This document shows, piece by piece, positions 10,260 through 59,319 of a stretch of DNA of 64,000 nt (position 1 is the stretch's first letter; every line of letters begins with the position of its first letter). A program made the translations under genes and the position numbers. The notes below the pieces were generated by a model. The model had not been told where the DNA came from. It did not search any database and saw nothing but the letters and a program-made list of their open reading frames with translations. The DNA comes from an uncultured Rhizobium sp. Its GTDB lineage: Bacteria; Pseudomonadota; Alphaproteobacteria; SMXQ01. The stretch lies in NCBI GenBank assembly GCA_964628235.1, contig CAZVLU010000005.1, positions 16,296 to 80,295 on the forward strand, in the 5' to 3' direction.

Positions 10260-10336
10260 GGTCGGGACGATAGGATTTGAACCTACGACCCTCAGACCCC
10301 CAGTCTGATGCGCTACCAGGCTGCGCTACGCCCCGA
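10260..10336 (-). tRNA. tRNA-Pro (anticodon GGG)
   Basis: Reverse complement CGGGGCGTAGCGCAGCCTGGTAGCGCATCAGACTGGGGGTCTGAGGGTCGTAGGTTCAAATCCTATCGTCCCGACCA folds as cloverleaf; anticodon loop CTGGGGG; CCA end; coordinates hand-counted (+/-1). Confidence 0.85.
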
Positions 10337-28144: not shown

Positions 28145-29284
28145 CTATTTTTCCACCGCCACGAGCTTGAATTTCCCCGATCGGATAGCTTCGATCATCG
28201 CCGCTTCGGTCTGGCTGTCGGGCGCCGTGGACTGCGAGATCTGATTTACCGCGTCGAGCGACGCCTTGGGGCAAAGGTGGCCGTAGGTCCGCTCGACCAT
28301 GTCGACCGACATTTCGAGGGTCTTCGACACGGTCCAAACCGAAACGCCATTTTTAAGCATGATCGTCGCCGCCGTGTGGCGCATGACATGCGGACTGACA
28401 TTCGGCACCTTGGCCTGCCGCGCCAGAGCCTTGAAATTTTTGTAGAGGTCTGCGTCGCTGTCGAGCACAAAGTCGGAAATGCGCTCCTTGTAGGCTTGCT
28501 CCAGCACGTTCCGCAGGGTGCGCGACATCGCCACGACGGCCCGTCGCTTCTTCGTTATCTTCCGCCCCGGCACGTTGTAGTCGATCATGCCGGCGGAAAA
28601 GTCGACGCGCGACCACTGGAGCTGTTGCACCGCCGTCTTGCGCGCGCCGGTTTCGCGCGTCAGCCAGTAAAAACGCTCGATCCGCGAGAGCCGGCCGTCA
28701 CGCCGGCGCGTCTTGATAGCGGCCGCCGCCAGGCGCTCCAGCTCTTCCGGCTCCAGCCAGCGCGCACGGGCTGCGTTTTTCGGCGGGAGGTCGAAGGCGG
28801 GCACGTCGCCCGCCGGTATGAGCTTGCGTTTCCGGTCTGCGCACCAATTGAACATGGCGACCAGCATGAGCAATTCGCTCCGCACGGTCGAGCGCATGAC
28901 GCCCGAGCTGGAGCCGAGCTTGCCGCTGACGCGCTTATCCTCGTAGGCGTCGACGGCGTCCTGATTGACCTCCGGGTAGAGCAGCCGGCCGAAGTGCCTT
29001 TTCAGTCGGCGCCCGACGCGGCGGAGCGGCCCGATCGAGAGCGAGTTTTTTTCCAGGTGCTTCTTCTCGTAGACGTCCCAAAGATCTTCGACCGTGTAGA
29101 CATCGCTTGGGGCTGCGCCCTGCCCCATCAAGAGCCACTGGCCGAAGAAAGCCTTCGCAGCGCCCAAATCCTTCGTGCGCGTGCTGACGCGCTTGCTGCG
29201 TCCTCGTTTGCCCTTGGGGCTTGGTTCGGTCCAGTGAACGTACTGGACGCCGTTTTTGTCGGGCTTGAGGTAGGGCGCTGACAT
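28145..29284 (-). CDS. tyrosine-type site-specific integrase
   Basis: 379 aa; C-terminal catalytic region HVMRHTAATIMLKNGVSVWTVSKTLEMSVDMVERTYGHL. Confidence 0.9.
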   Translation of the reverse strand: MSAPYLKPDKNGVQYVHWTEPSPKGKRGRSKRVSTRTKDLGAAKAFFGQWLLMGQGAAPSDVYTVEDLWDVYEKKHLEKNSLSIGPLRRVGRRLKRHFGRLLYPEVNQDAVDAYEDKRVSGKLGSSSGVMRSTVRSELLMLVAMFNWCADRKRKLIPAGDVPAFDLPPKNAARARWLEPEELERLAAAAIKTRRRDGRLSRIERFYWLTRETGARKTAVQQLQWSRVDFSAGMIDYNVPGRKITKKRRAVVAMSRTLRNVLEQAYKERISDFVLDSDADLYKNFKALARQAKVPNVSPHVMRHTAATIMLKNGVSVWTVSKTLEMSVDMVERTYGHLCPKASLDAVNQISQSTAPDSQTEAAMIEAIRSGKFKLVAVEK

Positions 29285-29442
29285 TTCTTCACAGCCTCCT
29301 TGTATATTTCAAGATCCTCGGATTCGATCTTCGGCGGGCGGCCCGGCAGATACGCCAAAAGCCCGGCCAGGCGCAGGCGCTTGACCGTCGAGACCGAACA
29401 ACGAAGCTCTTTAGCGACTTCCGTTTCCGTCAATAGCGGCAT
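29128..29442 (-). CDS. excisionase / AlpA-like HTH DNA-binding protein
   Basis: Internal start MPLLTETEVAKELRCSVSTVKRLRLAGLLAYLPGRPPKIESEDLEIYK (HTH_17-like); 3' part overlaps integrase start, true stop/extent uncertain. Confidence 0.5.
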   Translation of the reverse strand: MPLLTETEVAKELRCSVSTVKRLRLAGLLAYLPGRPPKIESEDLEIYKEAVKKCQRPTSSPTKTASSTFTGPNQAPRANEDAASASARARRIWALRRLSSASGS

Positions 29443-29899
29443 CGTCGGCCTGCAACAGCTCGGCGACCTTGAGCGCCGTGGTGAGATAAACGAGTTTGTT
29501 GACGCGGAGGAACGCGAGGTTCGGCGCCGTGCTGCTCGCCTTGACCTCGAAGGCGGCAACGGCCGCTTCCGGCGTTTGGCTGGCGTCGTCTGCGAAGCGA
29601 ATGCCTCGATTGTAGCGGGTGGGCTCCAGCTCCTCGGGCTTCATGTCGAAGACCTTCGCCAGCTTCTCAAGGTTTTCGTCGTCCGGCAGGACGGCCGCGC
29701 GGATATAGGTCGAGATGGCCGCGCGCTGAATGTCAGCCCGGCGTGCCAATTCGCTTTGGTGCCAGCCCTTGCTGACCATCAGCTTGTAGAGACGCCGACT
29801 AAATTCCTTTTTCGCCGTCTGTTTAGCTGAAATGCGATCTTTCGCGCTCGCATCAGCTAACTCGTTTTCCCCGGTGCGGGAGCGAGGTTTTCTAGCCAT
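29411..29899 (-). CDS. XRE-family (Cro/CI-type) repressor-like protein
   Basis: HTH: LYKLMVSKGWHQSELARRADIQRAAISTYIRAAVLPDDENLEKLAKVFDM; divergent from a Cro-like gene. Confidence 0.7.
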   Translation of the reverse strand: MARKPRSRTGENELADASAKDRISAKQTAKKEFSRRLYKLMVSKGWHQSELARRADIQRAAISTYIRAAVLPDDENLEKLAKVFDMKPEELEPTRYNRGIRFADDASQTPEAAVAAFEVKASSTAPNLAFLRVNKLVYLTTALKVAELLQADDAAIDGNGSR

Positions 29900-47046: not shown

Positions 47047-49272
47047 ATGACGAAAACCGCAGCGTTTAGCAAGTTCTGGTCTCTCGGCTTCCGCTCGCTC
47101 GTGCCGATCACGCCGCCGGGCGCGGCCGTCTCCGAGAAATCGACACTGGCGAAACGACCGGGCTCGATCGGCAAAGCCGTCGGGATTCGGGGCGGAGATG
47201 GGCTCTGGCGCGGCTTCGATTGGGTCAAGCATCATACATCGGCGACAGACATCGAGGCATGGGCCGAGATGGGCGCCGGCGTCGGCATCCGCACGGGCGA
47301 CGGCATCATCGCCATCGACGCCGACACCTTCAACGCGAAGTATGTCGAGGAGATCGCCAAGGCGGCGAAGGCGCTGCTCGGCGACGCGCCCGTGCGCATC
47401 GGCAACCCACCTAAATTCCTTCTGCTCTACGCCGTCTCCGAGCCCGTGGCCTATCAGCGCGTGCTGTTCGACGACGGGCTGCCGTTCCGCCCTGGCGCCG
47501 AGCCGCGCGTCGAGATGCTGTCGGACGGCCGGCAGTTCGTCGCCGACGGTATCCACCCCTCCACCGGCAAGCCCTACACCTGGCCGGGCCGCGGGCTGTG
47601 GCCCCGCGACAAGCTCACCACCGTCACGCCGCAACAGCTCAACGCCTTCTTCGCCCGCCTCACCGAGATCCTGCCGGCAGCCGCGCGCGTCGAGACGACG
47701 GCAGCCAACGACCGCAGCAACATCGACCAGGCGTCGCTGGAAGGTGACAGCAAGACCGTCGAGGCCGCCGTGCGCGCCCTCCCCAACACCACCGAGCTAT
47801 TCCCGACCTATGACGACTACATCCGCGTCGGCGCCGCCATCAAGGGCGCGGCGCAGGGTCTCCCCGATCACGGTCTCGCCCTCTTCCTCGAATGGGCGGA
47901 GCGCTGGTCGGGCGGCAACGACCTGGAGCGCGCGGCGGCCGACTTCGCCCGGATCAAGCCGCCTTACGAGCTTGGCGCGCGCTGGCTCTACGAGATGGCC
48001 GACAGCCACGGCAAGGGCGCGTTCCGCCATGCCGACGTTTGGTTCGAGCCGCTGGCCGAGGTCGAGCTAAATCCCTTTGAGGCCGCCCGCCTCAAGCAAG
48101 CCGAAGAGACGCGCATCGAGCCGATCCGCTGGATACGGCCGAGCGAGTGGAAGGGCCGCACGCCGCCGGATCGCGAATGGGAGGTGGAAGGCTGGATACC
48201 CAAGGGCGAGGTGACGCTGCTCTACGGCGACGGCGGCATCGGCAAGACCCTCCTGGCCCACCAATACGCCACAGCGGCCGCGGCGGGCGTCTCATGGCTC
48301 GGGCTGAACACCCGGCAAGCCAAGGTCATGTGCTTTTTCTGCGAAGACAGCGAGGCCGAGCTGCACCGCCGGCAAATCGACATCAACAACGCCCTCTGCC
48401 TCGACTACGACCAGGCCGACGCCAATCTGCGCATCGCCAGCCGCAAGTACATGGACAACCTGTTCATTCTTTGGGACCGCAACACGGGGGCGATGAAGCG
48501 GCAAGCCGTATGGGCGCAGCTCCTAGAAGACGCCGTCGCCTTCGGCGCGGAGGTCATCGTCGTCGACACCATCGCCGACACCTACGGCGGCTCCGAGATC
48601 GACCGCGGCCAAGTCAACGCTTTCGTGAAGTCCTGCCTCGGCCGGCTCGCCTCCGAGATCCAAGGCTCGATCATCGCCCTCGGGCACCCGTCGATCGCCG
48701 GCAAGACAGAAGGCCGATCCGGCAGCACCGCCTGGAGCAACGCCGCGCGCTCGCGCCTGTTCCTGCGCTACCCGAAGAACGTCGAGAAGGGCGACATTCG
48801 CGAGCTGGAGGGCATGAAGCTGAATTACGGGCCGAAGGGCTCGCTGCTCAAGCTCCAGTGGAAGCGCGGCGCGTTCGACGTGCTGGCCGGTTCGACGGCG
48901 GGCACGGTCCATCTAAACGCCTTGAACGACCCCAAGACAGCGCCCGCCTTCGAGCGCATCGAGGATATGGCCGAGCGCGCCGTGCTCGCCGCCGTGGCGG
49001 CCGCCGAGGCGGAAGGCGTCGCGCTCGGGGCGTCCTCGCGGTCGCCCGTCTACGCGCCGCGCGTGCTCAAGCAGCGCGAGCCGGAAGCGCTGGCCGTCTA
49101 CACGGCCGAAGAGGTCGAGACGGCGCTAAGGAGCCTAGAACGGAGGGGGCTTGTTCAAGCCAAAGAGGTTGCGCGCCGTGGCAACCGTCACCCCGTCATG
49201 GGCTATGCCGTCGTCCGGCAAAAGCCGGAAGCGGCGGACAATCTGTCCGAAGGGTCGGGCGTTTTCCAGTGA
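47047..49272 (+). CDS. bifunctional primase-polymerase (Prim-Pol) / RecA-like helicase-loader replication protein
   Basis: N-terminal GAGVGIRTGDGIIAIDADT Prim-Pol motif; central Walker A LLYGDGGIGKT (AAA_25-like), Walker B VIVVDTIAD. Confidence 0.85.
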   Translation: MTKTAAFSKFWSLGFRSLVPITPPGAAVSEKSTLAKRPGSIGKAVGIRGGDGLWRGFDWVKHHTSATDIEAWAEMGAGVGIRTGDGIIAIDADTFNAKYVEEIAKAAKALLGDAPVRIGNPPKFLLLYAVSEPVAYQRVLFDDGLPFRPGAEPRVEMLSDGRQFVADGIHPSTGKPYTWPGRGLWPRDKLTTVTPQQLNAFFARLTEILPAAARVETTAANDRSNIDQASLEGDSKTVEAAVRALPNTTELFPTYDDYIRVGAAIKGAAQGLPDHGLALFLEWAERWSGGNDLERAAADFARIKPPYELGARWLYEMADSHGKGAFRHADVWFEPLAEVELNPFEAARLKQAEETRIEPIRWIRPSEWKGRTPPDREWEVEGWIPKGEVTLLYGDGGIGKTLLAHQYATAAAAGVSWLGLNTRQAKVMCFFCEDSEAELHRRQIDINNALCLDYDQADANLRIASRKYMDNLFILWDRNTGAMKRQAVWAQLLEDAVAFGAEVIVVDTIADTYGGSEIDRGQVNAFVKSCLGRLASEIQGSIIALGHPSIAGKTEGRSGSTAWSNAARSRLFLRYPKNVEKGDIRELEGMKLNYGPKGSLLKLQWKRGAFDVLAGSTAGTVHLNALNDPKTAPAFERIEDMAERAVLAAVAAAEAEGVALGASSRSPVYAPRVLKQREPEALAVYTAEEVETALRSLERRGLVQAKEVARRGNRHPVMGYAVVRQKPEAADNLSEGSGVFQ

Positions 49273-49470
49273 TTCGCGCTGCGTCAAGCTGCGTCGAGCT
49301 TCCTTGCAAGTCATTGATTTTGCTTGCGTCGAGCTTCGGCGGTTGTATGGCTGCGTCAAGCTGCGTCAAGCTGCGTCAAGCTTCCACGCAAACCATTGAG
49401 ATAAAAGAAAATTGGTGCTGTGCGTCAAGCTGCGTCGGGGTTCTGCGTCAAGCTTCACCCCTAAAGGGGG
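49273..49470. repeat. iteron array (putative phage replication origin)
   Basis: 8-9 copies of (C)TGCGTCRAGC within 200 bp incl. a 3x perfect tandem, AT-rich core gagataaaagaaaattgg, immediately 3' of primase gene. Confidence 0.7.
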
Positions 49471-50654: not shown

Positions 50655-51089
50655 TTATGGCTGTGTGATCGGGGCGGCCGCGAGGTAGAGCCGCAGGGCG
50701 TCTAGCTCTTCGTGGCTGTCGAGGTATTCGCCTGCCGCGATGTTGGCGTCGGCAGCGTGGCGGCAAGCGCCGTCGAGGTGCGCGAGACATTCGGCGCGAT
50801 GGGCTTCGCTCTGGATCTTCGCGGTTGACGCGAAGGCGTAGAGGCAGAGCCCCGGATCTGTGTCGTTGATGTAAGACGCCCATTCGTGCGCGGCCGCGCT
50901 GGCTTCCTGCGCCGACAAGATCGGGTAAGCCCCGATTTTGGCGAGAGCTGTTTTCAGCTCGATAACGCGGGCGTCTAGCATTTCCTGCGTCGGGAAGCCT
51001 TCTTGGTTCGCCGCGTCCTGCTCGCACCATTCGAGGGCGCTTTTAAGTGCGGCGACGGTCTCCGCGCCAGGGTTGATTTCTTGCTGCAT
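50655..51089 (-). CDS. hypothetical protein
   Basis: 144 aa, coupled in antisense operon. Confidence 0.45.
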   Translation of the reverse strand: MQQEINPGAETVAALKSALEWCEQDAANQEGFPTQEMLDARVIELKTALAKIGAYPILSAQEASAAAHEWASYINDTDPGLCLYAFASTAKIQSEAHRAECLAHLDGACRHAADANIAAGEYLDSHEELDALRLYLAAAPITQP

Positions 51090-51155
51090 CGCTTGTGCTC
51101 CTTGTCCGGTCGAGAGGCAGAAAGGCGCGGCGCTACGGGGCGCCGCGCCAAGCGG

Positions 51156-52028
51156 TTAGGCCGCTTTGAGTTTCTGCATCTCGGCCGCGAGGGTCCAAAG
51201 GGCGCGGTTCAAGGCGACGTTGCCGTCGATACCGTTGACGGGGCGCGTCTGGCGACGCGCGACGCGGCGGCCGTTGGCGTCGCGCTGGACGTAGTCGAGA
51301 CCGCCGCGCACCAAGTTTTCCTGTGCGCGGTTGAACGTCCGCCACAGGTCATTGCCCGCGTCTTCGCGCCGGCGGGGTGCGTTGATGAGAGCCGGCGCGA
51401 TGGGCGCTTTGCCTTCCTCGAAGCGAAGCTCGGCCGCGGCGGCCGCGAAGGCTTCCTGCTCGCCAGGGTGCAATTCGATCGCGCGCATTTCGGCGACGCT
51501 GGCGTCGATCCGCGCGCCGTCTTCGATCACGCGATATGCGCCTTCGATCACTTGGCCGACGATGTCGCCTTTGTGCGGAATGCGGATCGACTGCATTTCG
51601 CCTTCGCAGACCACCAGGCCATTCGAGCAGACCATGCGGAAAAGCCCGCTCATGAGCTGGTAGGACGACGTTCCGTCGTGGCTGTTGAGCATGACCACTT
51701 CGCGCAGGCTGTCGCCGACAGTGACGGAGTCGGCGCGGCGGAAGCGGATGAGGTGCTTGGTAAAGCCCCGCTTTTCTTCGCTGCGCGAGCCGCCCTGCCG
51801 CACCTCATAGGGGAAAAAGCCCTCGTTGCGCAGGCCCGCGAGCACTTCGCGCGTCGGGATATAGGTGTATTTCTCGCTGCGGCTGTCGTGCTTGTCTTCG
51901 GCGAAGACCGAAGGGGCGACGCGCGCGATTTGCTCATCGTCGAGTGCGTCGCGCGAGCGAAGGATCGCGCCGCCCGCGCCAAAGCGAGAGATGCGACCAG
52001 AGCCAGAGGTCATGACGTTTGCATACAT
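51156..52028 (-). CDS. DUF932 (phage/plasmid-related) protein
   Basis: ~290 aa; YTYIPTREVLAGL...MLNSHDGTSSYQLMSGLFRMVCSNGLVV pattern typical of DUF932/TIGR03299. Confidence 0.7.
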   Translation of the reverse strand: MYANVMTSGSGRISRFGAGGAILRSRDALDDEQIARVAPSVFAEDKHDSRSEKYTYIPTREVLAGLRNEGFFPYEVRQGGSRSEEKRGFTKHLIRFRRADSVTVGDSLREVVMLNSHDGTSSYQLMSGLFRMVCSNGLVVCEGEMQSIRIPHKGDIVGQVIEGAYRVIEDGARIDASVAEMRAIELHPGEQEAFAAAAAELRFEEGKAPIAPALINAPRRREDAGNDLWRTFNRAQENLVRGGLDYVQRDANGRRVARRQTRPVNGIDGNVALNRALWTLAAEMQKLKAA

Positions 52029-52087
52029 TGGAGAGCCTTTCCGTTGTGCCCGCTTCGCGGACTGTTCAAAGGCGGGCGTTCCCGTCT

Positions 52088-52145
52088 CTGTATGGCTGTT
52101 GTATGCCTGTTGTATGTCTGTCGTCAACCGCCTTGATTGACAAAA
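52088..52145. promoter_or_regulatory. divergent promoter region with triple TGTTGTATG direct repeat
   Basis: ctgtatggcTGTTGTATGccTGTTGTATGtctgtcgtcaaccgccTTGATTGACAaaaa. Confidence 0.45.
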
Positions 52146-52211: not shown

Positions 52212-52670
52212 ATGCCAGATCAGCGAGGGCGCAAGACGCCACAAGAAAGCCTCTTCGTTCAGGCGATGGCGGCCACGAATGACGCTGTGTTTTCGGCCCG
52301 TGAGGCCCAATACGCCCACCCCGCGCAACGTGCGCACGATTTAATGAAGCGGCCCGCGATTGTCGCGGAAGTGCTGCAATTGCAGCAGGAACGGCTGTTT
52401 AACGAGATTCTGCCGCTCGCCGTTGAGGTGCATAAGGCTCTCTTGCTCAATCCCGCGACGCCAGCGGGCGCGAAGGTGCGCGCCGTTGAGTTGGCGTATG
52501 ATCGGGCGTTCGGCGCGGAGGGTGCGGCCAGCGGCAAGCAACCGCACGAAATGACGGCCGATGAGCTGGCGCGCGAGCTGGATCGGCTCAAGAGCGAAGC
52601 GGCCGCGCGCGCTCGCCCCGTGATCGAGGGCACGGCCGAGACCGTCGAGGAGCCGGGCGTTTTCGCCTAG
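52212..52670 (+). CDS. terminase small subunit-like protein (Terminase_2-like HTH)
   Basis: TPQESLFVQAMAATNDAVFSAREAQYAHPAQRAHDLMKRPAIVAEVLQLQQE matches KLTPKQE.F...GNATQAA..AGYS...A...LLKNP.V TerS N-domain; RBS ggagg. Confidence 0.55.
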   Translation: MPDQRGRKTPQESLFVQAMAATNDAVFSAREAQYAHPAQRAHDLMKRPAIVAEVLQLQQERLFNEILPLAVEVHKALLLNPATPAGAKVRAVELAYDRAFGAEGAASGKQPHEMTADELARELDRLKSEAAARARPVIEGTAETVEEPGVFA

Positions 52671-52884
52671 CTGCGCCCTGCCTGCGCCCAAGTGTCTAGC
52701 CTAAGTGCTTGTTATACCGTGCTTTGCTTGGCTATATGCAACACTCCGCCCGGCTCGCTGCGCCTGGCGTCGAGCCCTGCCGGGGCGCGCCGCCCGCCGG
52801 GCCGACCCCCGGCCTATAGTCCGACGTCGCGCCGGATTCGGTGCCCCGACGCGCATAAAAATTTGCAGCCGAAAAACATTTTCG

Positions 52885-52940
52885 GACATTCTGTCTGCTA
52901 TCGCTTGACTGAATGACAGACACCGACCTACATTCCGCGT
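52885..52940 (+). promoter_or_regulatory. candidate late promoter flanked by palindromic TGTCTG operator
   Basis: TGTCTGctatcgcTTGACTgaatgaCAGACAccgaccTACATT (TTGACT-N18-TACATT). Confidence 0.4.
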
Positions 52941-53484
52941 AGGCGTCCTGGCGAGAAACCCCGCGCGTAGTTGCTGCCGCAAGCCAGTGGACACGGGCGG
53001 ACCTAACCGCCGGGGCGCCTAGGCGAAAAAACACGGTGAACCTCCCGGCCGTAGGACGGCGCAAGCCGGATCGCGTGATGGTGGCCCGCAAGGGATGGGA
53101 GCCCATCTTTCGCTTATCACCGCGTAACCGTTTCGGCGGCCCGATTTCTTCCACGCCCCCGCAGGAATGCGGAGACGCTGCCAGCCAGCAGTAGGCGCCG
53201 CTTCACAGCGGCAGGGAGTCGGGCCGCCGCAGCGCCGTATCGGTGAGTATCTGGGCGAAGGTGCGCGCCTTCGTCTGCCCCGCGCAGGGCTACCCCGTGA
53301 AGGGGCCGGATGCTCACCGCTGCGGCGACGGAGTAAGCAGGGCCGTACCTGGGCTAACAAGCGACTGTGAAAAGGTCGCCCTATAGCCCGTCAAGTGAGG
53401 GGTAGGACGCCGGGAAGCGAGGCCCGGACTTAGCTAGGGTTGCGCCTAGCCCGCGGTATATCGACAGCCACCGAAGGAGCCACC

Positions 53485-53793
53485 ATGAGCGACGAGAAAT
53501 CCACCGAAGAAATGATCCAGGCGAAGGGCCTGAACGCCCCTCGCCTCACGCCCGAGATGATCGACGCGCAGATCGTCACGAAGCTCTTCCACGTTTTCCC
53601 GAAAACCACCACGACGGTTTGCTGCATCGTTCTCGACAACGGCTACACGGTCGTCGGCGAGAGCGCCTGCGTCAGCCCCGAGAATTTCGACGAAGAGATC
53701 GGCCGCAAGGTGTCCTTCGAGAACGCCCGGCAAAAGATTTGGACGCTCGAAGGCTACGCGCTGCGCAACCGACTGGCGGCCGCTGCCGTCTGA
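53485..53793 (+). CDS. Gp49-like phage protein
   Basis: RBS gaaggag; TTTVCCIVLDNGYTVVGESACVSPENFDEEIGRKVSFENARQKIWTLEGY resembles Phage_gp49_66 family. Confidence 0.45.
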   Translation: MSDEKSTEEMIQAKGLNAPRLTPEMIDAQIVTKLFHVFPKTTTTVCCIVLDNGYTVVGESACVSPENFDEEIGRKVSFENARQKIWTLEGYALRNRLAAAAV

Positions 53794-53825
53794 TTAGCCT
53801 CTGCTCGACTAGTTCGCGTTTGTTG

Positions 53826-53868
53826 AACGCCGCCGGCGCCCTTCCACGGTTCCGGCGGCGTTTTCTTG
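53826..53868 (+). terminator. rho-independent terminator after Gp49-like gene
   Basis: GAACGCCGCCGG-16nt-CCGGCGGCGTTttcttg, 11-bp perfect stem. Confidence 0.55.
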
Positions 53869-53932
53869 ATTTTGTATGATGATGTCTGTAGGTTGCGCCT
53901 GACAACCCGCGTCGCGGCATACATTTAGCCCC

Positions 53933-57675: not shown

Positions 57676-59319
57676 ATGTCTAGCTCCGCTTCCAGCAGCA
57701 CTCGACCGATCCGGCGCCCCGGCGTGCCGGCCGTCGTTCGCGCGCGCGCCGACGATGTCGAGCTGGCCGAGATCAATAAGCGGATCAAGCTTCTCGAACG
57801 TCAACAGCGCGCCCTCGAAGCGCATGACGATCTGCTCGTCTACACCAAATTCACCATGCCCCACCCCGAGGCGCCGAACGACGTCAACCGTTCGCGCTAC
57901 GAGGACGAGCTGTTTCACCGCGAGGTGGCGAAGGCGCTCGAAGCTGTCGAGCGCGGCGAAATCGTCCAGCTCATCTATTGTATGCCGCCCCGCCACGGCA
58001 AGACCGAGATGGCGACGAAGCGCATGGCCGCCTGGTGTAGCGGCCGGCATCCCGATTGGGACGTCGCGGTCGCTTCCTACTCGGATACGATGGCGCAGGA
58101 CATGGGCGCCGACACGCGCGCTATCCTGACGTCGGCGCAGCACAAGCAGGTGTTCCCGAGCTATCGCCTGCGGCGCGGCGGAAACGCCAAGGATAACATT
58201 CAAACCGATCGGGGCGGCCGTATCGTTTTCGTCGGCCGCGGCGGCGCGCTCACGGGCCGCGGTATGCATATCGGCCTCGGCGACGATCTGTTTAAGGACC
58301 ACGAAGAGGCGCGGTCGCAGGCCATTCGAGACCAGGCTTGGAATTGGTTCACGAAGGTCTTCATGACTCGCCGAATGGGCCTCAAGCTGGTCATCCTGAC
58401 GATGACGCGCTGGCATAGCGACGACATCATCGGCCGCCTCACCGACCCGGAAAATCCCTACTACAACGCCATCGAGGCGAAAAAATGGAAGATTATCCGC
58501 CTGCCGGCCATCGCCGAAGACGACGACCCGCTCGGCCGCACGCCTGGCGAGGCGTTGTGGCCGGCGCGCTACGACCTGGATTTTCTTGAGAGCCAGCAGC
58601 GCCTCGATCCTCTCGGCTTCGCCTCGCTCTACCAGCAGCGGCCGAGCGTCGCCGACGGCGTGCTGTTTCGTCGCGAGAACGTGCGCTACTACAAGCCGAG
58701 CGAGCTTCCCGAGGATCTGCGGATCTATTGCGCGAGCGATCACGCCGTTTCGACCGGCCAGCGCAACGACCCGACCGTTTTGCTGAAAGTCGGCATCGAC
58801 CGTCAGAGCAACATCTATCTGCTCGAATGCTACTGGCAGAAAGTGAAAACCGACGTCGCTGTCGAAGCGATGCTCGAAATGGGCCGGGGCAACATGCGCC
58901 CGCTGATCTGGTGGGCGGAAAAAGGTCATATCTCGAAGTCGATCGGGCCATTCCTCTACAAGCGCATGGTGGAGACGCAGACTTACCTGAATATCCGCGA
59001 AGTGCCGCCGATCGGCGACAAGGAGCAACGCGCGCAGTCGATCGCCGCGCGGCACGGCATGGGGAAGGTGTTTTTCCCGATTGGCGCGCTTTGGACCGAG
59101 CGCGCGATCGAGGAAATGCTCGCCTTCCCGAACGGCACGCACGACGATTTCGTCGACACGCTGGCTTACATCGGCCTTGGCTTGCAGAGCCAATTCAAAG
59201 CCGGCGCGCCCGCGAAGAAAGAAAACGAGCTGCCGAAATTCGGATCGCTGGCTTGGGTCAAGTACATGGACAAATTCAAGCGGATGCAGCGCGAGCAGAC
59301 CGCCGCCGGAGGCTTTTAG
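57676..59319 (+). CDS. terminase large subunit
   Basis: Walker A CMPPRHGKTEMATK; C-terminal nuclease domain; Terminase_6-like. Confidence 0.9.
   Translation: MSSSASSSTRPIRRPGVPAVVRARADDVELAEINKRIKLLERQQRALEAHDDLLVYTKFTMPHPEAPNDVNRSRYEDELFHREVAKALEAVERGEIVQLIYCMPPRHGKTEMATKRMAAWCSGRHPDWDVAVASYSDTMAQDMGADTRAILTSAQHKQVFPSYRLRRGGNAKDNIQTDRGGRIVFVGRGGALTGRGMHIGLGDDLFKDHEEARSQAIRDQAWNWFTKVFMTRRMGLKLVILTMTRWHSDDIIGRLTDPENPYYNAIEAKKWKIIRLPAIAEDDDPLGRTPGEALWPARYDLDFLESQQRLDPLGFASLYQQRPSVADGVLFRRENVRYYKPSELPEDLRIYCASDHAVSTGQRNDPTVLLKVGIDRQSNIYLLECYWQKVKTDVAVEAMLEMGRGNMRPLIWWAEKGHISKSIGPFLYKRMVETQTYLNIREVPPIGDKEQRAQSIAARHGMGKVFFPIGALWTERAIEEMLAFPNGTHDDFVDTLAYIGLGLQSQFKAGAPAKKENELPKFGSLAWVKYMDKFKRMQREQTAAGGF

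Follow-up and report, generated by a model that had tools for sequence, protein, structure and literature searches.

A probable control region at the packaging end of a prophage in an uncultured Rhizobium: a conserved DNA module followed by a lineage-specific leader with stable RNA folds

The window analysed here, a stretch of 64,000 nucleotides (nt) from an uncultured Rhizobium sp. (contig CAZVLU010000005.1), consists of GC-rich bacterial DNA (~65% GC) with an integrated prophage. Between the predicted small terminase gene (TerS) of this prophage and a gp49-like gene lies a gap of 814 bp (52671-53484), which extends from the TerS stop codon TAG (52668-52670) to the ribosome-binding site (RBS) and start codon (ATG 53485) of the gp49-like gene. 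On balance, we favour the view that an integrated phage of ~46-50 kb has its packaging end here and that the gap is a non-coding control region, in which a conserved DNA module with a genome terminus and a promoter is followed by a structured leader acting in cis. The module occupies positions 52671-52940; some 37 related phages of 46-50 kb each contain one copy of it, just after TerS. The upstream gene, encoding 152 amino acids (aa), is assigned to the small terminases because several of its 48 homologues bear PF03592 (Terminase_2); by itself it matches PHROG_51, terminase small subunit, weakly (E=0.003). The downstream gene contains PF13876. Both flanking assignments had been proposed in a first-pass annotation made from the letters alone, and both hold, as does the RBS (GAAGGAG, 53473-53479) at which that annotation let the gap end.

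Several lines of evidence argue against a coding function of the gap and bear out its earlier description as free of open reading frames (ORFs). The codon-usage log-likelihood, calculated in 150-nt windows from 52645 to 53470, is at most −0.08 per codon in all six frames, the 5th percentile of the true genes of this prophage being +0.17. Three-base GC periodicity is weak (chi2 of 9.6 versus at least 26 in coding pieces). No Pfam domain was detected in eight ORF translations from the gap and no PHROG in the single ORF tested (53036-53191), and the 113-aa minus-strand ORF, the longest spurious ORF of the distal ~520 nt of the gap, had no match among 5.8 billion proteins. In two other assemblies with identical contigs, the gene callers predicted no gene in the gap. 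The region had also been called stop-codon-dense, which is correct relative to genes but not relative to shuffled sequence: the 47 stops in six frames compare with 40.5 ± 5.5 in shuffles (p about 0.12), an ordinary non-coding density.

The gap does not match a known RNA family either. The Rfam scan suggested alongside the first-pass annotation was run over the whole window (Rfam 15, gathering threshold) and returned only a tRNA at 10262-10335; the families covered include GOLLD, ROOL, HEARO, C4 antisense RNA, group I/II introns and riboswitches. Permissive Rfam scans of the gap gave chance-level matches only (E at least 1.5, bits far below gathering), and ARAGORN found no tRNA or tmRNA gene in 52500-53600, in agreement with the earlier impression that no tRNA, tmRNA or riboswitch signature is present. 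One candidate, a ZMP/ZTP riboswitch (RF01750) at 52934-53057, within the first hairpin domain described below (D1), was rejected. D1 resembles the 5′ sub-domain of this riboswitch in CUGGCG and GGCGGA..ACCGCCGGG, but the match stays below threshold with 15 bits versus 39 (E=1.5-5.7). Membership was taken to imply both sub-domains, the conserved ACUGGCG, GGUGGA..ACCACCGGGG and CCGCCUGGGC, and at least 39 bits; the candidate has a 37-nt insertion, a poorly matching 3′ sub-domain (CCUCCCGGCC) and neighbouring genes unrelated to purine or folate genes. We judged the resemblance to be fortuitous. A diversity-generating retroelement template, a CRISPR-like and a ToxI-like element were discarded as well, as no repeats tie the gap to the rest of the window and no internal tandem repeats were seen.

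For comparison, loci were collected via TerS homologues and via TerL (160 loci). The related phage group has contigs of 46-50 kb and a common gene order, in which primase, TerS, module, cargo, tail fibre, lysis genes and TerL follow each other (L117-L123, many of L124-L283 and Rhizobium phage RHph_N65). RHph_N65 (MN988536.1) is the closest cultured relative, with a TerL that is 64% identical. Conserved blocks were read from an alignment of 37 stretches downstream of TerS. The features of the upstream part of the gap and its border are as follows.

52212-52670, plus strand: predicted small terminase (TerS) gene, 152 aa, with a coding GC-frame signature; upstream edge of the gap.
52671-52689, plus strand: direct repeat CTGCGCCC, two copies 11 nt apart, read in the sequence directly after the TerS stop.
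52701-52738, plus strand: block CTAAG..TTGTTA-N18-TATATG (P1), from the alignment of 37 stretches.
52745-52804, no strand assigned: GC-rich spacer (~85% GC), variable in length and sequence among relatives; assemblies break here.
52800-52898, plus strand: core module, nhmmer profile E=8.5e-19.
52838-52846, no strand assigned: predicted right physical end of the virion DNA, from homology to the terminal repeat boundary of phage Mae-Yong1326-1 and from contig ends.
52905-52934, plus strand: predicted sigma-70-type promoter P2, TTGACT-N18-TACATT (−35 at 52905-52910, −10 at 52929-52934), from a consensus scan.

A profile of the 100-nt core hits ~37 distinct loci, one in each phage; the hit is invariably on the plus strand, with TerL 3.5-8 kb further downstream. 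In every relative, ~130 nt separate the TerS stop from the start of the module. In the window, the core contains the C-box GACCCCCGG (52804-52812), AGTCCG (52818-52823), CATAAAAATTTGC (52854-52866) and CGGACATTCTGTCTG (52883-52897); its family form is GACCCCCGG...AGTCCG, then CATAgAAATTTGCGCCCGAAAA......CGGACAnnnTGTCC. Since four half-sites of the GTCCG/CGGAC type surround an A/T-rich box and RNAalifold detected 0 conserved pairs in the module, we read it as a probable protein-binding region that acts at the DNA level. The TerS-proximal block has the family version TTGTGCGCAA-N5-GTGCGCAA and keeps its position in most of the 37 relatives; the CTGCGCCC repeats are a candidate binding site for a protein, perhaps TerS. 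P1 takes the form CTAAGC.ATTGATA-N17/18-TATnnn in relatives, where it overlaps an ACTGTnTA..TAnACAGT palindrome, and is a putative promoter-like site with an operator. The part comprising the GGAC box and the promoter is tandemly amplified in some relatives (L124:5680-5900, L144:3695-3850, L132:1925-2100 and L235:3457-3700). The amplification takes the form of a (GTCCTGATC)n array in L124, of a ~55-nt unit in L144 and L132, and of a doubled promoter in L235, which suggests iterated protein-binding sites.

A pac region was among the functions considered for the gap in the first-pass annotation. For the first third, this idea is supported by the position of the conserved DNA module next to TerS, by a terminal repeat boundary in another phage and by contig ends, whereas the remainder is better read as a leader. 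Microcystis phage Mae-Yong1326-1 (OP028995.1) has fixed termini with a direct terminal repeat (DTR) of 366 bp according to PhageTerm (PMC9503304). The ends of its database record are identical over 366 nt, and its TerL and portal proteins are 44.6% and 37% identical to those of the phage in the window. Like TerS in our reading of the window, its TerS-like ORF lies at the right end of the genome. In the direction of the structural genes, the repeat consists of the last ~253 nt of this ORF and a further 113 nt with the C-box, and it stops 13 nt before the CATAAAATTTCGC box. The C-box and the CATAAAATTT box are recognisable in the same order in both phages with the DTR boundary between them, and this boundary aligns to 52845/52846 of the window, inside the module. 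Two independent metagenome contigs, L117 (JGI, 46.8 kb) and L295 (ENA), end at ~52846 and ~52838 in alignment coordinates, at most 8 nt from the boundary column, while sister contigs of these phages read through the end point. Of 14 TerL-anchored contigs that extend leftwards beyond the module, eight have their start no more than 180 nt away from it. Overall, independent contigs stop in the module far more often than chance allows. Logan contigs of the identical phage (SRR12822863, SRR12808459; L001, L002, L115, L116) break in the GC-rich spacer, with ends at 52775 and 52779 and starts at 52747 and 52782; one pair is separated by exactly 2 nt (52780-52781) and the other overlaps by 29 nt. Because the Mae-Yong1326-1 boundary aligns in the module and independent contigs end there, we infer that the right end of the virion DNA is made near 52838-52846 and that the sequence to the left of this point forms a short terminal repeat.

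The promoter P2 borders the core on its downstream side. It agrees with TTGACA/TATAAT at 9 of 12 positions and is one of 2 such matches in 2 kb, where 0.3 would be expected. A match of at least 9/12 is found at the equivalent place in 14 of the 37 relatives, compared with 9.4% of control segments; the remaining 23 are without a clear match. The TACATT −10 is identical in RHph_N65, L147, L158 and L160, and many relatives have TTGAC-N17-TACAnT, or TTGTCC-N17-TACATT with the right half of the palindrome as −35. The promoter noticed in the first pass was thus recovered by consensus scanning and recurs in the group. The perfect palindrome in which it was said to lie had to be redrawn: the arms TGTCTG (52892-52897) and CAGACA (52917-52922) exist, but they enclose only the −35 hexamer and not the whole promoter. 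From the sequence, P2 is predicted to be active and to drive transcription of the leader. An element CATACATT is present in only two copies in the window (52022-52029 and 53918-53925, both on the plus strand), before TerS and before the tailspike gene. It echoes the CCTACATT −10 of P2, and 5 of 100 shuffles equal its 2 matches, so that it could be a shared promoter element or a product of chance.

Behind P2, the window departs from all relatives. The features of this part are listed below; ranks refer to a GC-adjusted scan of 100-nt windows on both strands of the 64 kb (~16,000 windows).

52940-53460, plus strand: lineage-specific segment of ~520 nt that none of the relatives has; predicted 5′ leader of the gp49-like gene.
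52936-53028, plus strand: D1, compound hairpin with a closing stem of 14-17 bp; −54.3 kcal/mol, z −4.3 to −4.6, rank 14.
53134-53232, plus strand: D3, multi-branch junction of three small hairpins, closed by a 17-bp stem; −58.5 kcal/mol, z −5.2, rank 8.
53233-53332, plus strand: D4, Y-shaped hairpin with a closing stem of ~22 bp, abutting D3; −65.1 kcal/mol, z −5.3 to −6.0, rank 2.
53351-53389, plus strand: D5, nested hairpin GGGCTA-acaa-GCGAC-tgtgaaaag-GTCGC-ccta-TAGCCC; −21 kcal/mol, z −2.2 to −2.5.
53473-53793, plus strand: gp49-like gene with its RBS (GAAGGAG, 53473-53479); coding sequence 53485-53793, PF13876 with E=1e-30.
53825-53874, plus strand: intrinsic terminator after the gp49-like gene, a GC stem of 10-12 bp (GAACGCCGCCGG..CCGGCGGCGUU) and then UUCUUGAUUUUG.

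In RHph_N65, L147, L156, L158 and L160, a conserved CCCGAAGAGGAAG ribosome site precedes the gp49-like gene, which begins ~40-100 nt past the −10 hexamer. The window has this promoter and ribosome site (CCACCGAAGGAG) too, with ~520 extra nt between them. This segment showed no similarity to the 283 related loci in blastn, nhmmer and tblastx searches, with tblastx against the cargo of the relatives yielding GC-rich noise only, and it was unmatched in INPHARED phages, PLSDB plasmids and the rest of the window. Pattern scans of IMG/VR gave no hit for the nested hairpin, 3 for the D3 arms (chance hits with unrelated interiors) and none for the D4 arms. The gap travels with TerS and not with the gp49-like gene. 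At 112 gp49 loci from genomes and IMG/VR, the upstream gaps are short and without similarity to it, and a scan of viral sequences for TerS homologues was empty. The loci of TerS protein homologues and the 160 TerL-anchored loci carry the module, and none of them has the 520-nt part. For the two flanking proteins, no relative exceeds 62% (TerS) and 71% (gp49) identity, and the phage is a singleton. Judged by these comparisons, the leader segment is an insertion peculiar to this phage. The slot after the promoter is a cargo hot spot in relatives, occupied by HNH endonucleases, Acb2/Tad1-like genes, small ORFs or tandem repeats. Acb2/Tad1-hairpin-like (anti-CBASS/Thoeris sponge-like), HNH and small-ORF cargo was located at L120:5503-5901, L291:1388-1765, L118:5856-6233 and, in RHph_N65, L284 5206-5751.

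A strong terminator stands directly behind the gp49-like gene; therefore P2, the leader, this gene and the terminator form a self-contained monocistronic unit. The terminator has a loop of 15 nt and hence was missed by a simple scan. No intrinsic terminator was found in 52940-53484 and no leader hairpin is followed by a U-tract. A terminator candidate at 53093-53112 (GGGAUGGGAGCCCAUCUUUCG) was dismissed, since with −8.8 kcal/mol and z +0.7 it is no better than shuffles. The suggestion of a long cis-regulatory late leader accordingly fits the last two thirds of the gap in position and strand, as this part lies downstream of a conserved promoter, folds preferentially in the sense strand and reaches up to the RBS; its regulatory function is conjectural. 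The attribute "late" is doubtful, as the unit would sit at the leading end of the virion DNA, where relatives hold HNH and Acb2/Tad1-like cargo.

The predicted leader RNA is exceptionally structured. None of 200 shuffles was as stable as D1, D3 or D4. About 0.09 of the top 14 windows would be expected in 400 nt, but three were found, which is far from chance. The minimum free energy (MFE) structure accounts for 0.10-0.31 of the ensemble (0.20 for D3 and 0.31 for D4), and the main stem of D1 begins at the predicted transcription start (~52941). Folded as a whole, 52943-53484 has a z of −3.6 on the plus strand versus −0.5 on the minus strand. The minus-strand MFE values are −44.2 kcal/mol for D1 (z −1.8), −60.4 kcal/mol for D3 and −47.9 kcal/mol for D4, so that D1 gains 10 kcal/mol and D4 17 kcal/mol when folded on the transcribed strand, owing to G-U pairs. 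D3 contains GCCGC-ttcaca-GCGGC (53197-53212). Folding is unremarkable in 53029-53133 and over the final 80 nt upstream of the start codon, and no local fold sequesters the RBS of the gp49-like gene. All four hairpins named in the first-pass annotation are present, although the main structures are larger than those it listed, and the nested GGGCTA hairpin exists with a spacer of CCTA instead of CC.

If these parts belong together as we propose, terminase would most likely cut the right genome end in the core near 52838-52846, and the stretch preceding this site would become the short direct terminal repeat. Host polymerase would transcribe from P2 a 5′ leader of ~540 nt and the gp49-like gene up to the terminator; provided that the terminus is correctly placed, this would be the first unit at the leading end of the virion DNA. 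The leader would fold co-transcriptionally into three stable domains of ~100 nt with D1 at the 5′ end of the RNA, and it would most likely act in cis on its own transcript. The 5′-terminal D1 hairpin might shield the transcript from decay that depends on the 5′ end, and the stems of D3 and D4, near-perfect over 17-22 bp, might serve as RNase III-type processing sites or as barriers to elongation. Stability, processing or attenuation are thus conceivable functions of the leader, modelled on its predicted fold.

A number of observations weigh against this interpretation. The terminus is affected by the weak match of the module in Mae-Yong1326-1 (nhmmer E=0.11) and by the TerS-like ORF of this phage, for which hhalign gave only a marginal match (E=0.0012, probability 19%) to the TerS profile, in the C-terminal half of the latter. 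Upstream of the module, the contig ends scatter across ~180 nt and could stem from coverage loss in GC-rich DNA or from strain variation, and the Logan break at 52779/52782 looks like a 2-nt variant bubble. As to the leader, no homologue of the 520-nt segment was found in any collection searched, so that a selected structure has no backing from covariation or conservation. D3 is equally stable on both strands, as would be expected of a DNA palindrome, and the GC-rich background contains a few equally stable hairpins, e.g. 51097-51196. Most relatives have a leader of 40-100 nt without comparably stable hairpins, with L131 and L161 as the only exceptions; as a family-wide trait, a structured leader was dismissed on this account. 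The hairpin at 51097-51196 (plus strand) is the most stable GC-adjusted 100-nt fold of the window (−65.2 kcal/mol) and is located between minus-strand genes, 50655-51089 and the DUF932 gene at 51156-52127. The leader of L161 (L161:4536-4800) is a non-coding leader of its own of ~430 nt and unrelated in sequence; it contains a near-perfect hairpin of ~33 bp (z −6.5) with runs of A and U on its sides, and another canonical terminator directly ahead of the first gene.

The main rival, a serious one even if we hold it to be rather unlikely, is that the 520-nt segment has no function and derives from a decayed cargo gene and/or from one to three selfish palindromes of ~100 bp (REPIN/MITE/ERIC-like) in a slot that tolerates insertions, with an RNA that folds because the DNA is palindromic. 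The cargo hot spot after P2, the restriction of the segment to one phage and the lack of a comparably structured leader in most relatives all suit this explanation, as do the strand symmetry of D3 and the dimensions of the three domains, which with ~95-100 nt and inverted-repeat closures of 17-22 bp have the size and shape of palindromic mobile elements. A marginal three-base GC periodicity (p about 0.04) might be a coding relic. However, no second copy of any domain was found in the 64-kb window or IMG/VR, target-site duplications are missing and the three domains are unrelated to one another. Moreover, neutral decay of a palindrome does not predict the gain of 10 and 17 kcal/mol on the sense strand of D1 and D4, nor does a decayed gene predict hairpins ranked 2nd, 8th and 14th of 16,000 windows. 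At the other extreme, and on a rather speculative note, the 520-nt segment might be a new functional structured RNA made from the genome end that enters first, either as a cis leader or as a processed early non-coding RNA (ncRNA), whose family is unsampled since the lineage is a singleton; the module would then separately represent the terminus or packaging signal and early-promoter architecture of a widespread phage group.

A termination/antitermination cassette, in which hairpins stop or pause polymerase and a phage factor allows read-through as at lambda pR'-qut-tR', appears doubtful to us. The leader lies directly downstream of a conserved promoter, and strong canonical terminators occupy the equivalent leader of L126/L131/L193/L208 (~130-160 nt after the module), L130 and L161 (two of them). 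For GC-rich bacteria, it has been proposed that stable hairpins can act as terminators even where a U-tract is missing. Yet no U-tract follows any hairpin of the leader, the only terminator-like site (53093-53112) is weak, and the unit ends in its own terminator with no obvious feed into the structural operon. Neither Q, RinA/ArpU nor a sigma-like protein was recognised among the small phage ORFs tested, and Pfam and PHROGs gave no Q-like gene among ~40 ORFs scanned, many small ORFs being without assignment. The antitermination target, the leading idea of the first-pass annotation, is thus not supported for this phage, with no intrinsic terminator in the leader and no recognisable Q-like protein among the ORFs scanned. 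Still less probable is an independent ncRNA of a new family that acts in trans, for example as an early decoy or anti-defence RNA from the leading genome end. It would agree with the exceptional fold stability and well-defined structures (MFE frequency 0.1-0.3), with a strong sigma-70 promoter upstream and with the anti-defence-like (Acb2/Tad1-like) cargo of relatives at the same position, but the segment has no terminator or processing signal by which a discrete RNA could be freed ahead of the gp49 RBS, no homologue and hence no family yet, and no complementarity target or repeat architecture. We attach hardly any weight to a hidden protein gene, be it a small protein or one expressed via read-through of the in-frame TAG at 53192-53194. 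One plus-strand frame is open from 52943 to 53386 save for this single TAG, and its third-position GC is somewhat raised (0.78 over 52995-53335), but its codon-usage score is below that of every true-gene window, its second-position GC is too high and no RBS precedes it; the domain, protein and gene-caller results given above speak against a hidden gene as well.

The control region that we favour is embedded in a temperate phage, as indicated by the integrase gene at 28145-29284 (minus strand) that marks the start of the prophage together with an adjoining CI-like repressor gene. Next come plus-strand replication genes (SNF2, DUF2800 nuclease, PolA, C5-methylase and primase/AAA_25 at 47047-49272) and a short minus-strand block with the DUF932 gene (51156-52127) as its last member. 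The plus-strand order then continues with the 152-aa gene (52212-52670), the 814-bp gap and the gp49-like gene (53485-53793), downstream of which lie tailspike, endolysin, spanins, TerL (57676-59319) and portal. At least 4 iteron-like direct copies of GCTGCGTCAAGC-type units at 49278-49458, in a 400-bp gap after the primase/AAA_25 gene, are likely the replication origin of the phage. The sole tRNA gene of the window (10262-10335, minus strand) is 18 kb away from the end with the integrase and CI-like repressor genes (28145-29899) and therefore is not the attachment site; the interval contains the host genes plsX, fabH, H+-PPase, ribD and glyA.

What used to be an anonymous gap can now be read as a control region with distinct parts, in an uncharacterised environmental phage group associated with alphaproteobacteria. 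This group is common in metagenomes, with more than 35 distinct genomes recovered in this analysis, and is represented in culture only by RHph_N65 and Mae-Yong1326-1. The dissection offers a testable prediction, a virion DNA end at ~52838-52846 along with the promoter that fires first, which would help to orient and annotate genomes and to find the first-expressed cargo, such as the anti-defence-like genes of relatives. The leader is among the most stable local RNA structures of the 64 kb. If functional, it would be a large lineage-specific cis-RNA gained at a cargo hot spot; if not, it would illustrate how palindromic insertions mimic ncRNAs in GC-rich genomes.

Comparison with known systems places the region between several precedents. 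RHph_N65 has the same gene order, all boxes of the module and a TACATT −10 followed by the gp49-like gene, but its intergenic region between TerS and gp49 measures only 247 nt, its leader ~45 nt, and the structured 520-nt segment is absent. In Mae-Yong1326-1, the leader behind the terminal repeat boundary comprises ~190 nt unrelated to this segment, and the early region is otherwise arranged. REPIN, ERIC and Correia/MITE-type elements likewise are intergenic, imperfect palindromes of ~100 bp that are co-transcribed and form long RNA hairpins. In contrast to these, the domains described here are without extra copies in the window and IMG/VR and without target duplications, are mutually unrelated and, in two of three cases, are biased towards the sense strand. 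The late leader of lambda (pR'-qut-6S RNA-tR') and the put RNAs of HK022 resemble our leader as structured transcripts just past a phage promoter, and relatives of the phage in the window share promoter-proximal terminators with them. Our leader differs from both in lacking an intrinsic terminator, in domains that exceed put stem-loops in size and in a monocistronic unit that is closed by a terminator of its own; a Q-like gene was not found among the ORFs scanned. At its left end, T7 has a terminal repeat, the host-polymerase promoters A1-A3, the RNase III site R0.3 and gene 0.3. The two regions have no sequence relationship; one promoter stands here in place of three, and the leader is much longer, with three 100-nt domains versus one hairpin of ~60 nt. 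The phage in the window is temperate and its terminus is predicted by homology. What it has in common with T7 is an ORF-free stretch of ~0.8-0.9 kb at the genome end and the order of its elements: a terminal repeat boundary, sigma-70 promoter(s), a structured leader hairpin and a first gene of the accessory or anti-defence type.

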